A stretch of DNA of 64,000 bases from Oscillospiraceae bacterium (GCA_015064255.1 SVSP01000002.1:127462-191461), one strand, 5' to 3'; positions 28,166 through 41,499 are shown, counted from the stretch's first letter. Translations and numbers: made by a program. Notes: generated by a model from the letters alone, not told the origin.

Positions 28166-28590
28166 CCAAGGGCGTTGCCCTTGGAACCCGCTTAGAAACT
28201 TTTTGAAAAAAGTTTCTAAGAACTTCAAAAACTTTGCTGAAAAAGAGCAAGATTCGGAGGAGGCAGTTTTTGCGTCAGCAAAACTGCCAAGCGATGACGA
28301 AGTCATCGGTTTTCCCTTATGGAAACCCTGCCAAAACCCTTTTTGAAAAAAGGTTTTGGATTCCCAAAAACTTTACTGAAAAGAAAAAATAATAGTCGAA
28401 GCGACACGAAGTGTCGGTTTGGGCGCGTAATTTGCGGTTTTTGCTTACTCATAGTTTATCAGGGGTACGGACCGTCGAGGACGCCGGTCCCTACAATGGA
28501 TTTAATATTATAAACTAAAACAAATTCCTTCCCCCTTTAAGAAAAGTTTTTGGGAAGGTGCGGAAACCCTTTTTTCAAAAAGGGTTTCTG
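28166..28590. repeat. Array of modular hairpin element units and accessory hairpins
   Basis: Forward unit 28166-28245; hairpins 28262-28288 and 28292-28308; forward unit 28331-28383; hairpin 28402-28416; hp4 28469-28495; reverse unit 28527-28590. Fills the carB-pyrK spacer. Confidence 0.85.
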
Positions 28591-28610
28591 AGTAAAAGAA
28601 AGGCAGAGAA

Positions 28611-29354
28611 ATGAAGCAATCTATTTTTATTGTGATTTCCAACCGAAAGGTTGCAAAAAACACATTTGAAATGAAGCTTTCGGGCGATATTTCACATATT
28701 ACTGCACCCGGTCAGTTTGTCAATATTCAGCTTGACGGATTCTATCTCCGCAGACCTATTTCGGTTTGCGATGCAGAAAACGGAGTGCTGACACTTGTAT
28801 ATAAAGTGGTCGGCAAGGGAACGGAAAAGATGGCTGAAATGACAGGCGGAGAAGAGCTTGATATACTTACAGGCCTTGGTAACGGATATGACCTCACAAA
28901 ATGCGGAGATAACCCTCTGCTTGTGGGCGGCGGCGTAGGACTTCCTCCGATGTTTCTGCTCGCAAAAGAGCTTGTAAAAGCGGGTAAAAAGGTTAAGGTC
29001 ATAGCAGGATTCGGAAGCGCAGACGAGGTTTTCTATAAAGAAGAGTTCGAAAATATAGGCGCAGAGTTTACCGTAACCACCGTTGACGGAAGCTGCGGAA
29101 TCAAGGGTTTTGTAACAAACGCTCTTGAAACTGTCGGAGAATATTCCTCAATATGCTCGTGCGGTCCCGAGCCGATGCTCAAAGCGCTTTACAGCGCAAC
29201 AAGCGCTCCCGCGCAGTTCAGCTTTGAGGAACGTATGGGCTGCGGATTCGGCGCTTGTATGGGTTGCTCGTGCAAGACAGTTACAGGATATAAACGTATT
29301 TGCAAGGACGGCCCCGTTCTTTGCAGAGAGGAGATATTATGGGAAAAGCAGTAG
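28611..29354 (+). CDS. pyrK: Dihydroorotate dehydrogenase electron-transfer subunit
   Basis: 247 aa with an FAD/NAD-binding pattern and the C-terminal 2Fe-2S cysteines CGFGACMGCSC. Confidence 0.85.
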   Translation: MKQSIFIVISNRKVAKNTFEMKLSGDISHITAPGQFVNIQLDGFYLRRPISVCDAENGVLTLVYKVVGKGTEKMAEMTGGEELDILTGLGNGYDLTKCGDNPLLVGGGVGLPPMFLLAKELVKAGKKVKVIAGFGSADEVFYKEEFENIGAEFTVTTVDGSCGIKGFVTNALETVGEYSSICSCGPEPMLKALYSATSAPAQFSFEERMGCGFGACMGCSCKTVTGYKRICKDGPVLCREEILWEKQ

Positions 29355-30259
29355 AAACTAAAGTAACGCTTTGCGGAATAGAGCTTGATAATCCCGTGAT
29401 CCCCGCAAGCGGAACGTATGGATTCGGATATGAATTTGCAGAGCTTTACGATATAAATATCCTCGGAACATTCTCGTTCAAGGGAACGACAAAGGATCCG
29501 AGATTCGGAAATCCCACTCCGAGAATCGCAGAATGCCCGATGGGAATGATAAATTCGGTCGGACTTCAGAATCCGGGTGTTGAAAAGGTTATTTCCGAAG
29601 AGCTTCCGAAGCTCAAAAAGTGCTTTAATAAGCCCGTAATGGCTAACGTTTCTGGATTTTCGGTTGAAGAATACGTTTACACCTGCGAAAAGCTCGATAA
29701 ATGCGATCAGGTTGGCTGGCTTGAAGTAAACGTAAGCTGTCCTAACGTTCACGGAGGCGGTATGTCCTTCGGTACGTCACCCGAAGCTGCCGCAGAGGTA
29801 ACACGCGCGGTAAAGGCAGTTACGACGAAGCCTGTTATAATAAAGCTTTCGCCAAACGTCACAGATATTGTTTCGATAGCAAAGGCTTGTGAAGAAGCGG
29901 GTGCGGACGGTATCAGCCTTATAAATACTCTTCTCGGAATGAGGATCGACCTTCGTACCAAAAAGCCTGTAATCGCCAATAAAATGGGCGGATTTTCGGG
30001 AAGCGCGATATTCCCCGTAGCCGTCAGAATGGTTTATCAGGTGGCGGGCGCTGTTAAAATTCCTGTTGTAGGAATGGGCGGTGTTTCGAGTGCCGAGGAC
30101 GTTGTGGAAATGATGCTCGCAGGGGCAACCGCAGTAGAGGTCGGTGCGGCAAACCTTATAAATCCTTACGCTTGCCGCGATATTATAAACGATCTGCCGA
30201 GAGTAATGGAAAAATACGGAATAAAAAATTTAAATGAAATTATAGGAGGAGCACACTAA
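29339..30259 (+). CDS. pyrD: Dihydroorotate dehydrogenase catalytic subunit (class 1B)
   Basis: ORF 29300..30259; the ATG at 29339 (MGKAVETKVTLCGIELDNPVIPASGT) has GAGAGGAG upstream. Overlaps the pyrK end by 16 nt. Confidence 0.9.
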   Translation: MGKAVETKVTLCGIELDNPVIPASGTYGFGYEFAELYDINILGTFSFKGTTKDPRFGNPTPRIAECPMGMINSVGLQNPGVEKVISEELPKLKKCFNKPVMANVSGFSVEEYVYTCEKLDKCDQVGWLEVNVSCPNVHGGGMSFGTSPEAAAEVTRAVKAVTTKPVIIKLSPNVTDIVSIAKACEEAGADGISLINTLLGMRIDLRTKKPVIANKMGGFSGSAIFPVAVRMVYQVAGAVKIPVVGMGGVSSAEDVVEMMLAGATAVEVGAANLINPYACRDIINDLPRVMEKYGIKNLNEIIGGAH

Positions 30260-39812: not shown

Positions 39813-40526
39813 ATGATAATTTTTCCTGCAATAGATCTTTACGAGGGCAAGGCGGTGCGTCTTTACAAGGGCGACTATGCACAGCTCACGGTTTATGATG
39901 AAAATCCGATAAATACGGCAAAAAAATTTGTAGCAGAAGGCGCGACACATATCCATATGGTTGACCTTGAGGGCGCGCGTGACGGCAACACCCCGAATTT
40001 CGAAACAGTAAAACAGATAGTTACTTCGACCGATCTTTTTGTTGAGATCGGAGGCGGAATACGCGATATGGAAACTATCGACAAATATCTTTCTATCGGT
40101 GTTGGACGTGTTATTCTCGGTACGGCGGCTGTTTCAAGCGAGGGATTTGTAGAGCGTGCCGTAGCTAAATATGGCGACAAAATAGCAGTCGGGGCAGATA
40201 TAAAGGACGGCGAGATAGCCGTTAAAGGCTGGGTAGAAAAAAGCGGTGTCAAGAGCGACGATTTCTTTGAAAAAATGCAGAAGATCGGCGTAAAAACTGT
40301 TATTTGCACCGATATCTCGCGCGACGGAGCTATGCGCGGTACAAATCTTGAGCTTTACAAGTCGCTTTCTGAAAAATATGATATGAACATAATTGCTTCG
40401 GGCGGTGTTTCTTCGATGGACGACGTTATCGCACTTCGCAAAATGAACGTTTACGGCGCGATAATCGGCAAGGCTTATTACACCGGCGCTATCAAGCTCT
40501 CGGATGCGCTTAGGGCTCTGCCCTAA
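39813..40526 (+). CDS. hisA: ProFAR isomerase
   Basis: 237 aa; MIIFPAIDL N-terminus and (beta/alpha)8 HisA pattern. The last codons and the stop lie in repeat hairpin 40509-40527. Confidence 0.9.
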   Translation: MIIFPAIDLYEGKAVRLYKGDYAQLTVYDENPINTAKKFVAEGATHIHMVDLEGARDGNTPNFETVKQIVTSTDLFVEIGGGIRDMETIDKYLSIGVGRVILGTAAVSSEGFVERAVAKYGDKIAVGADIKDGEIAVKGWVEKSGVKSDDFFEKMQKIGVKTVICTDISRDGAMRGTNLELYKSLSEKYDMNIIASGGVSSMDDVIALRKMNVYGAIIGKAYYTGAIKLSDALRALP

Positions 40527-40732
40527 GAACCCGCCAAGGGCGCTGCCCTTGGAACTCGCCAAAGAACTTTTTGTAAAAAGTTCTTTGGAATCTCAAAAAC
40601 TTTACTGAAGGAAATATTATTATTTCTTTTTAAGAAAAGTTTTTGAATGGGTTTGGGAAAACTTTTTTCAAAAAGTTTTCCCAAGAGAACGTTTTAGAAA
40701 GGCATGGAAAACCTTTTATTAAAAGGTTTTCC
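40509..40732. repeat. Composite modular hairpin element (two hp1, forward unit, reverse unit, extra hp2)
   Basis: hp1a at 40509-40527; hp1b at 40534-40552; hp2 at 40559-40588; box at 40591-40610; box-rc at 40627-40650; hp2 at 40653-40684; hp2-like ggaaaaccttttattaaaaggttttcc at 40706-40732. Confidence 0.9.
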
Positions 40733-40740
40733 GATTAATT

Positions 40741-41499
40741 ATGATAACAAAAAGAATAATACCGTGTCTTGACGTAAGGGACGGGCGAGTAGTAAAGGGA
40801 GTAAACTTTCTCGGACTTTCGGACGTATCATCTCCGGTCGAGCTTGCGCAGTTTTATAGCGAAAACGGAGCAGACGAGCTTGTTTTTTATGATATAACGG
40901 CATCGGCGGAAGGACGTGCGCTTTTTACGGACATTCTCTGCGAAACGGCACGAAAGGTATTCATACCGCTGACGGTAGGCGGGGGGATAAACACACTTGC
41001 AGACTTTGACCGCGTGCTCAAATGCGGTGCGGATAAGGTCAGCGTCAATTCGGGCGCAATAAGAAACCCGATGCTGATAAAAGAAGGCGCAGAAAAATAC
41101 GGAAGCCAGTGCGTAGTGCTTTCGGTTGATATAAAAAGAGTCGACGGAGTTTTCTGCGTTTTTGCCAAAGGCGGCAGAGAAAACACAGGAATCGAGGCTA
41201 TTTCGTGGATAAAGCGCGGAGTTGAGCTCGGTGCGGGCGAAATCGTTGTAAACTCGATTGACACGGACGGAGTCAAAGGCGGATTCGATATCGAAATGCT
41301 CGACGCTGTTTGCGAGGCGGTAAACGTTCCCGTTATTGCATCGGGCGGTGCGGGTTCGCGTGAGGACTTTGCGACTCTGTTCGAAACGCTTCCCAAGATC
41401 GATGCAGGACTTGCCGCATCTGTTTTCCATTTCGGACAGATAAAAATTCCCGAGCTGAAAAAATATCTCGCGGATAAAGGCATAAGTATGCGACTTTAA
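40741..41499 (+). CDS. hisF: Imidazole glycerol phosphate synthase cyclase subunit
   Basis: 252 aa; KRIIPCLDV N-terminus, typical HisF. Confidence 0.95.
   Translation: MITKRIIPCLDVRDGRVVKGVNFLGLSDVSSPVELAQFYSENGADELVFYDITASAEGRALFTDILCETARKVFIPLTVGGGINTLADFDRVLKCGADKVSVNSGAIRNPMLIKEGAEKYGSQCVVLSVDIKRVDGVFCVFAKGGRENTGIEAISWIKRGVELGAGEIVVNSIDTDGVKGGFDIEMLDAVCEAVNVPVIASGGAGSREDFATLFETLPKIDAGLAASVFHFGQIKIPELKKYLADKGISMRL

Follow-up and report, generated by a model that had tools for sequence, protein, structure and literature searches.

The window analysed here is a 64,000-nt stretch of DNA from an Oscillospiraceae bacterium (GCA_015064255.1, SVSP01000002.1:127462-191461), and all coordinates are counted from its first letter. 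It encodes carB and pyrK, as well as a his operon, in which the spacers between several genes are filled by hairpin repeats. We identified a mosaic repeat family by nhmmer profile search and repeat finding, with eight forward and four reverse full units, all in the first 41 kb of the window. Degenerate copies are also present. We consider it somewhat better than an even bet (a probability of about 0.55) that the hairpins are small interspersed mosaic repeats, recently inserted at former 4-nt stop/start overlaps in one lineage of uncultured Clostridia from the ruminant gut, with survival of only those inserts that left a working ribosome-binding site or brought one.

A forward unit has four parts. 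The first is a GC hairpin (e.g., CCAAGGGCGCTGCCCTTGG) and the second a short C-rich block (AACCCGC). The third is another hairpin (hairpin B) of the form N6-9-CTTTTTGAAAAAAG-N6-9, and the fourth is a block of 5-6 nt followed by a tail (CAAAAACTTTRCTGAAAA; the family-wide form is CAAAAACTTT). The loop CTTTTTGAAAAAAG and the tail CAAAAACTTT are invariant across the 59 distinct units that we aligned, and the bases 5' of the stem vary. The hairpin motif has five matches in the window and none in 100 shuffled sequences. The last hairpins before pyrK, hisB and hisF have predicted folding energies of -15.9, -16.0 and -12.8 kcal/mol (z-scores relative to shuffles of -5.2, -5.6 and -4.0, respectively). 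No Rfam family was identified for the units, either in a scan of the whole window at gathering thresholds or in a permissive scan of positions 28100-40800, which gave chance-level matches only. Literature searches using the loop and tail as strings, and a keyword search on Clostridial hairpin repeats, returned nothing relevant.

In the carB-pyrK spacer, the first forward unit (28166-28244, + strand; nhmmer E 4e-13) begins directly after the carB stop codon (TAA, 28163-28165). It consists of GC hairpin A (28166-28184), the third block aacccg, hairpin B (28191-28220, with its loop at 28200-28211), and the mirrored block and tail CAAAAACTTTGCTGAAAAA (28221-28244). A second forward unit (28331-28383, + strand; E 5.6e-14) comprises hairpin B (28331-28359) and a tail (28360-28383). 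The reverse unit before pyrK (28535-28590, - strand; E 9.5e-11) has a reverse tail (28535-28556), the purine block gggaagg and the hairpin cggaaaccc..gggtttctg (28561-28590), which ends 20 nt before the ATG at 28611. The ribosome-binding site of pyrK (28598-28613, + strand) lies outside this hairpin, and consists of GAAAGG (28598-28603), 7 nt and the ATG.

The his operon spacers measure 163 nt (hisD/hisC), 146 nt (hisC/hisB) and 214 nt (hisA/hisF). Between hisD and hisC (37193-37336, + strand), GC hairpin A (37193-37211) contains the hisD stop codon (TAG, 37195-37197), and a nested hairpin (37236-37268) interrupts the forward unit (37217-37296). After hisC there is a forward unit (38412-38490, + strand; E 1.3e-13) with hairpin B at 38437-38466 and the tail at 38467-38490. 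Its GC hairpin A (38412-38430) encodes the final hisC residues (AKGAALGTR*), and the stop codon is TAA at 38438-38440. The reverse unit before hisB (38511-38567, - strand; E 7.8e-11) has a reverse tail (38511-38530), the purine block gaaaggg and the hairpin ttgtggaaac..gtttccacaa (38536-38567), which ends 19 nt before the ATG at 38587; the hisB ribosome-binding site (38571-38589, + strand) is GAAAGG (38571-38576), 10 nt and the ATG. The forward unit after hisA (40509-40612, + strand; E 1.7e-12) has two GC hairpins (40509-40527 and 40534-40552), hairpin B (40559-40588) and a tail (40589-40612). The first of these GC hairpins contains the hisA stop codon (TAA, 40524-40526) and encodes ..LRALP*. 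Forward units therefore start at or over the upstream stop codons of carB, hisC and hisA. The last 3-9 residues of HisD (..KGT*), HisC and HisA are encoded by the repeats, in the GC hairpin that also supplies the stop, and replace the C-termini found in relatives.

Two reverse units precede hisF. The first (40628-40684, - strand; E 9e-9) has a reverse tail (40628-40647) and a hairpin (40653-40684). The second is diverged (repeat-finding family D6), and its hairpin, ggaaaacctttt-att-aaaaggttttcc (40706-40732), ends 8 nt before the hisF ATG at 40741. The distances from the last hairpins to the three start codons agree with those of the initial annotation, which we verified in the sequence. The segment next to the hisF start (40690-40743, + strand), here referred to as the T module, reads cgtttt, AGAAAGG (40696-40702), cat, the 12-bp hairpin, gattaatt and the ATG. 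An AAAAGG sequence does lie in the 3' arm of the hairpin, as first described, at positions 40721-40726 (rather than 40720-40725) and 14 nt from the ATG. It had been taken for the only purine-rich sequence resembling a Shine-Dalgarno (SD) site at hisF. This is incorrect, as AGAAAGG is located 3 nt 5' of the hairpin and fits the usual SD of the genome, GAAAGG.

Comparison with relatives indicates how these junctions arose. None of 80 distant metagenome loci (HisD 62-68% identical, approximately 0.9 Mb of sequence) carries a unit, and their median gap at hisD/hisC, hisC/hisB and hisA/hisF is -4 nt (ATGA overlaps), with a GGAGG SD within the upstream gene. In a graded series of closer relatives, L209 (83% identical) has fully compact junctions. 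L208 (89%, HisF identity) has inserts at hisC/B, hisH/A, hisA/F and hisF/IE and none at hisD/C, and these belong mostly to another repeat family. The others (92-98%) have inserts of 111-288 nt at hisD/C, hisC/B and hisA/F, with hisG/D occupied in two genomes only. Similarly, the carB-pyrK gap is 8 nt in L215 (a 74% relative) versus 243-445 nt in occupied genomes. The window's ddl-methyltransferase spacer (47232-47258, 27 nt) is without a unit and that of L210 (a 93% relative) has one, which is a presence/absence polymorphism. Between the window and L203 (97% HisF identity), an orthologous forward unit differs in the left arm, right arm and third block together, which looks like replacement of the copy rather than point mutation. 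Given the empty relatives and the variable sites and lengths, we conclude that the inserts are recent, lineage-specific and in flux, and not an old regulatory device.

The stems show strong covariation. In the 59-unit alignment, 98.5% of stem cells are paired and 125 cells have double changes; none of 500 shuffles was as high. There are five variable stem pairs, and compensatory double changes occur in every one. G.U pairs account for 3 of 590 stem cells. The scarcity of wobble pairs points to a constraint on the DNA or on both strands, or to very recent copying, and speaks against selection on a single RNA strand. Covariation with the stem extends to the block between stem and tail, which is a mirror of the pyrimidine arm with G answered by C (e.g., GGAAAC/GTTTCC then CCTTC, or GGGAAC/GTTCCC then CCCTC). 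For hairpin B this rule predicts 182 of 225 positions, versus 125 +/- 5.9 in permuted data (0 of 5,000 permutations as high). The mirror z-score for the third block of hairpin B is 6.1, and for GC hairpin A with its following block it is 6.5 (Watson-Crick z of -2.5). Watson-Crick pairing of the hairpin B block with either arm gave no signal (z of 0.3), and was rejected. Read as a direct repeat, the third block reaches almost the same scores (z of 5.4 for hairpin A and, if G is again converted to C, 5.2 for hairpin B), because many of the pyrimidine tracts are symmetric. The direct-repeat reading was set aside in favour of the mirror, which asymmetric stems support. Together, the purine arm, the pyrimidine arm and the mirrored block of pyrimidines have the layout of an intrastrand triplex.

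Repeats with this potential have been described as BoxC, PIT and TMECO (Hoyne & Maher, 2000; Holder et al., 2015, PMC4666352). They are intergenic and multi-copy, sometimes occur as inverted pairs, are not on mobile elements, and have been linked to rearrangement between strains (PMC4666352). The units share their three consecutive blocks with short loops (purine, pyrimidine and mirrored third); they too are intergenic, multi-copy and in some cases in inverted pairs, are not on phages or plasmids, and vary in location between close strains. In the terms used for these repeats, the forward strand of the units is class III and the reverse strand class I. The consensus is unrelated to that of TMECO (CCCTCNCCC-N3-6-GGGNGAGGG-N3-GGGNGAGGG), so the units are the same kind of repeat but a different family. 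Unlike the known repeats, they chain two triplex-type modules, have an A/T-rich inner stem and a fixed tail, and answer the G next to the A run with C, which is not a canonical triple. TMECO has no preferred distance to genes, whereas the units here abut stop and start codons.

The family is not confined to this lineage. We scanned 596 Gb, with one genome per species, for an exact 23-base pattern made of the loop and tail, for which we estimate a chance expectation of less than one match. There are matches at 119 or more loci. Among the matches listed, most are in metagenome-assembled genomes of ruminant-gut Clostridia, Eubacteriales and Oscillospiraceae, and further taxa include Selenomonadaceae, Maridesulfovibrio, other Proteobacteria, Acidobacteriota, Aminicenantes and Omnitrophota. 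The isolate Acidocella facilis ATCC 35904 has four copies on three scaffolds, and the Maridesulfovibrio genome with the pattern is OZ223526. The flanks of the matches confirm that these are genuine units, with stems fitted to each genome. Neither viral contigs (IMG/VR, searched for the pattern) nor plasmids (PLSDB, searched for the composite) gave a match. An all-against-all comparison of 689 open reading frames (ORFs) flanking units at the 119 loci identified no recurring protein family beyond generic ones, such as ABC ATPases. In one Eubacteriales genome (L004, 4200-5900), units are inside a repeat of approximately 260 nt that has four copies within 1.7 kb. Several other hairpin modules are part of this repeat, as is a forward-reverse pair whose tails point inward like those in the window.

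The arrangement of the units within the clade is polar: GC-hairpin units always face an upstream stop and reverse units always face a downstream start (pyrK, hisC, hisB, hisF, ddl and two further genes). Across all taxa, units are mostly solo and found in either orientation between tandem genes (17 forward-only versus 23 reverse-only spacers), and convergent spacers are preferred over divergent ones (33 versus 9), with genes called from crude ORF maps. These counts rule out a fixed orientation relative to transcription in all taxa. The forward-then-reverse order is automatic because the composite is an imperfect palindrome. Further, where genes overlap in relatives, the spacer seen here consists almost entirely of repeats, so that the last unit must end near the ATG, and the proximity of hairpin and ATG is only partly informative. 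We identified no convincing promoter or terminator in the composites, and no excess over shuffles. Thus, the composites would be read through in the operon mRNA. The hisF hairpin was flagged as terminator-like, yet was rejected as a terminator, having only four GC pairs and lacking a real U tract. In the predicted folds of two of the three composites, forward and reverse sequences pair with each other, via the tails at hisA-hisF and via whole units at carB-pyrK.

The initial annotation proposed that a forward unit caps the 3' end of the upstream cistron and a reverse unit caps the 5' end of the downstream cistron. The polar, recurrent layout is borne out at the junctions of the clade, but a dedicated and conserved device is not, given the 4-nt overlaps in the 80 distant relatives and L209 and the variable sites and lengths. 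In such a processing or stability module, the mRNA would be cut in the A/U-rich tails between units; the forward hairpins would then block 3'-5' exonucleases on the upstream piece, and the reverse hairpin and GAAAGG would block 5'-3' decay by RNase J on the downstream piece. The polar layout recurs at at least seven junctions, the hairpins are stable, and the linker between units is A/U-rich without a terminator, all of which such a module would explain. REP hairpins protect upstream mRNA in E. coli. In Bacillus, two types of 5' stabiliser are known, the leader stem-loops of ermC and aprE and the STAB-SD of cryIIIA, which place a stem-loop and/or an SD-like GAAAGG(AGG) ahead of a cistron; each reverse unit joins a stem-loop to an SD-like purine block. 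The Bacillus elements, however, act only at the 5' end of the RNA or a few nt from it, whereas the units are internal to the operon transcript and would first require a cleavage. In addition, relatives have overlapping genes at these junctions, the inserts are variable and of recent origin, units elsewhere are solo, in both orientations and in convergent spacers, the stems have almost no G.U pairs, and two of three composites are predicted to pair forward with reverse rather than to be single-stranded. We therefore regard a processing module as unlikely, if the least so of the alternatives considered here.

According to the insertion explanation that we favour, the repeats would be transcribed within the operon, and the upstream gene now ends inside the first GC hairpin. 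The downstream gene has lost translational coupling and its ancestral SD, and must initiate alone. Reverse units may adjoin start codons for two reasons. First, the composite fills the spacer and, as an imperfect palindrome, has its hairpins on the outside and its tails on the inside. Second, an insert would survive only where a working ribosome-binding site was left intact or came with it. At pyrK and hisB, a normal GAAAGG SD lies free directly after the last hairpin. At hisF, the folded hairpin most likely brings the upstream GAAAGG to a normal spacing of 11 nt, forming a split ribosome-binding site. Alternatively, the ribosome may use the sequestered AAAAGG in the 12-bp stem, at 14 nt and just beyond the usual range.

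The geometry at hisF is consistent with a split site. GAAAGG is the commonest form of the SD in the window, and in most window genes having an AAGG-type SD its last G is 7-13 nt from the ATG. The hisF GAAAGG (ending at 40702) is 38 nt from the ATG in linear sequence, which is too distant, and 11 nt with the hairpin looped out, a working distance. In T4 genes 25 and 38 a hairpin has been proven to cut the SD-AUG spacing, from 27 to 11 nt and from 22 to 5 nt, respectively (PMC3014915). The hisF arrangement resembles that of gene 25, which is also at an intercistronic junction, in having an SD, a stable hairpin and a start; its spacing would change from 38 to 11 nt. Unlike those of the T4 genes, the hisF hairpin is a repeat module found before several genes, and has a second SD-like sequence in its 3' arm.

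The T module has the general form GAAAGG (or GGAGG), 3 nt, a 10-13-bp hairpin holding AAAAG(G), 7-11 nt and ATG. It precedes hisF in the window, L203, L204 and L207, hisC in L203-L206 and L210, hisB in L205, L207 and L210, and two other genes in L053. A diverged copy is present before pyrK in L211-L213, 23 nt from the ATG and with a free GAAAGG in between. In another start-proximal form, the reverse hairpin is followed by (A/G)AGAAAGGA, 7-18 nt and ATG. This form occurs at pyrK and hisB in the window, at hisB in L201-L204, and at hisF in L201, L202, L205 and L210. The ddl gene of L210 is similar, with a reverse unit (approximately 12601-12660, minus strand) in which the hairpin is 12 nt before the ATG and AAGAAAG alone lies in between. 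We also considered a module containing GCCTCCGGCGGC (copies in Aminicenantes and Desulfovibrio) as a portable GGAGG SD. An ORF start is within 90 nt of 18 of 26 of these units versus 45 of 97 other units, and this permissive test was unconvincing.

A different function proposed for the hisF hairpin is a translational gate, in which AAAAGG (40721-40726) would be the true SD and its concealment would lower translation or make it conditional on temperature, a factor or upstream translation. AAAAGG is indeed covered by the 12-bp stem (-12.8 kcal/mol), which stops 8 nt short of the ATG. Both the hairpin and the spacer of the window are also conserved in L203, L204 and L207. AAGG at 13 nt is used elsewhere in the genome, so that 14 nt is just out of range. 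Yet the module also precedes hisC, hisB and two unrelated genes, and is thus not tied to histidine. Sister lineages (L201, L202, L205 and L210) have a free GAAAGGA for hisF, and in the window there is a free GAAAGG just 5' of the hairpin. The need for HisF and HisH in matching amounts speaks against strong repression. Gating specific to hisF, as suggested in the initial annotation, is in our view very doubtful, the least probable of the explanations weighed. With low certainty, we favour a split ribosome-binding site at hisF over a gate.

An ATG at 40704-40706, directly before the hisF hairpin and 1 nt after GAAAGG, begins a 22-codon ORF that extends across the hisF start in another frame. Translation from it could open the hairpin, as a gate might use. 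We rejected this role as the ORF is out of frame and its ATG is ACG in L207; it is probably incidental.

The units could also be neutral at the level of expression, i.e., triplex- or cruciform-forming DNA that spreads and rearranges, with SDs that are native or newly evolved. The three-block mirror rule, the lack of G.U pairs and the fast turnover among relatives are as expected from this explanation, and triplex repeats have been tied to genomic instability, with no regulatory pattern found (Holder et al., 2015, PMC4666352). However, it is unlikely that a 12-16-bp hairpin located 8-20 nt from the start on a newly uncoupled mRNA is without effect. The T module was never seen away from a start codon, and the ancestral GGAGG SDs are gone, so the present SDs came with or after the inserts. 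Overall, we find neutrality quite improbable.

A more far-reaching possibility is that these cross-phylum intrastrand-triplex repeats are portable intercistronic cassettes. They would supply a stop and a 3' decay barrier to the upstream gene and a 5' hairpin and split ribosome-binding site to the downstream gene, making coupled genes into independent cistrons, and a widely conserved protein would read the CTTTTTGAAAAAAG loop and CAAAAACTTT tail. This is speculative, and we rate it below a processing module and slightly above neutrality.

Several observations weigh against recent insertion with survival of tolerated inserts as the full explanation. The invariance of loop and tail across phyla implies a constraint that insertion does not name. 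All recognised close copies of the T module directly precede a long ORF, and they do so at five different genes. A module restricted to start codons is not predicted by a purely selfish insert plus filter, and could have a selected function. In L214, the looped-out SD-ATG spacing would be 17 nt. No target-site duplication or exact insertion boundary was recognised in comparisons of empty and occupied sites, where boundaries are blurred, and no transposase was found among the unit neighbours at the 119 loci. Mobility is thus deduced solely from presence and absence among relatives. The crude ORF maps further limit the orientation census.

The family is of known kinds (REP/BIME-like mosaics and intrastrand-triplex repeats) in a new form. 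REP elements are known to affect the decay of upstream mRNA. Like REP, BIME and REPIN elements, the units are short, extragenic, many-copy hairpins that form inverted pairs and mosaics, often just after stop codons and inside operons. REP-type repeats are imperfect palindromes of 20-40 nt; the units, too, are imperfect palindromes, extragenic and present in many copies (12 full units in 41 kb), although several, unlike REPs, overlap the last codons of coding sequences. The 59-unit alignment has no conserved GTAG/GTGG head by the stem, and no RAYT family recurs beside units at the 119 loci. The units conserve the loop and 10-nt tail rather than the stem, and whereas REPs are species-specific, this loop and tail span several phyla. 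The REPIN concept has been set out in PMC3116915.

MITE-type repeats (e.g., Neisseria Correia, Yersinia ERIC/IRU and pneumococcal BOX/RUP elements) can alter how an mRNA is processed and how stable it is, and can lengthen or shorten reading frames. The units are also small, non-autonomous, of inverted symmetry and co-transcribed with neighbours. Empty and occupied orthologous sites exist, but their boundaries are blurred, and no terminal inverted repeats with target-site duplication could be defined from them. The units differ from MITEs in being approximately 50 nt long and combining freely. We know of no parent insertion sequence. RU elements carrying ORFs have been described (PMC2759123). 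Three unusual traits set the family apart: a loop and tail that do not vary across phyla, two chained modules in each of which three blocks covary, and a module beside start codons that resembles a portable split ribosome-binding site.

Small repeats that form hairpins are generally regarded as species-specific clutter, but in this family ruminant Clostridia, Acidocella and Aminicenantes share an identical loop and tail. In one lineage, the repeats have split open overlapping, coupled biosynthetic genes without destroying the operon. Relatives with unoccupied, differently occupied and identically occupied junctions constitute a natural experiment on the tolerance of operons to loss of coupling, on the re-creation of ribosome-binding sites, and on what conserves such repeats.

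Other repeats occupy the same kinds of junction. In L208, the other family consists of GGAACG-rich runs followed by CGCAAAACTTTGCTGACGAAAAAG, in the hisH/hisA, hisF/hisIE and hisA/hisF spacers, and fills junctions that are compact in the window. Each of the L208 inserts ends in an SD-like sequence just before the ATG (GAAAGGA, or AAGGAGA at hisF/hisIE). The hisG-hisD spacer of L201 and L202 (98%) is 127 nt, versus 12 nt in the window (35911-35922), due to a 115-nt insert of other hairpins; the native SD is kept upstream of the insert, and a new AAGAAAGGA is present at its downstream end. The nested hairpin in the window's hisD-hisC spacer, AAAACGATTTGCGCGCAAATCGTTT, splits the hairpin-B unit in its loop, and is also found in the hisD/hisC spacer of L203 and the carB/pyrK spacer of L211 and L212. 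Its recurrence at another junction in relatives indicates that modules insert into one another. An unrelated, second GC-rich hairpin repeat (GGGTACGGACCGTCGAGGACGCCGGTCCCTACAA; I9) occurs at 28468-28497 in the carB-pyrK spacer and, inverted and 93% complementary, at 37307-37336 in the hisD-hisC spacer.

The remaining units lie elsewhere in the window. Near its edge (49-192) there are a forward unit (49-96), a reverse unit (113-164) and a forward unit (137-192), the last two of which share one hairpin with tails on both sides. A solo forward unit (3701-3779, + strand), with a GC hairpin at 3703-3720 and hairpin B and tail at 3728-3779, is located in a convergent spacer after a + strand gene (1926-3698). 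The end of its tail, ACTTTTCTGAAAAG (3766-3779), is clade-specific and also found in other tails; it resembles the CodY box AATTTTCWGAAAATT, in a part of the tail that is not conserved across phyla. Another solo forward unit (20231-20307, + strand) follows a + strand gene (19224-20222) without a reverse partner; the gene that comes next (20357) has a GGAGG of its own. Above-threshold Rfam matches in the window are limited to a class A bacterial RNase P RNA (15826-16217, + strand; 261.8 bits) and a tRNA (62276-62349, - strand). Tandem 9-nt and 30-nt coding repeats rich in GCA, CCC and GCT (9538-9963; families D5 and D9) suggest that a gene of this region has an Ala/Pro-rich low-complexity stretch.

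The repeats also affect annotation, as they give rise to spurious small ORFs and make real genes appear longer than they are. In the carB-pyrK spacer they create a false 64-aa ORF (28319-28513, + strand). A called 53-aa gene in L001 (2783-2944, - strand), on the opposite strand of the hisA-hisF spacer, is likewise a false gene derived from repeats. A protein named PyrK in a public collection (P0123) has 373 aa, versus 247 aa here, and may be extended through the repeats.

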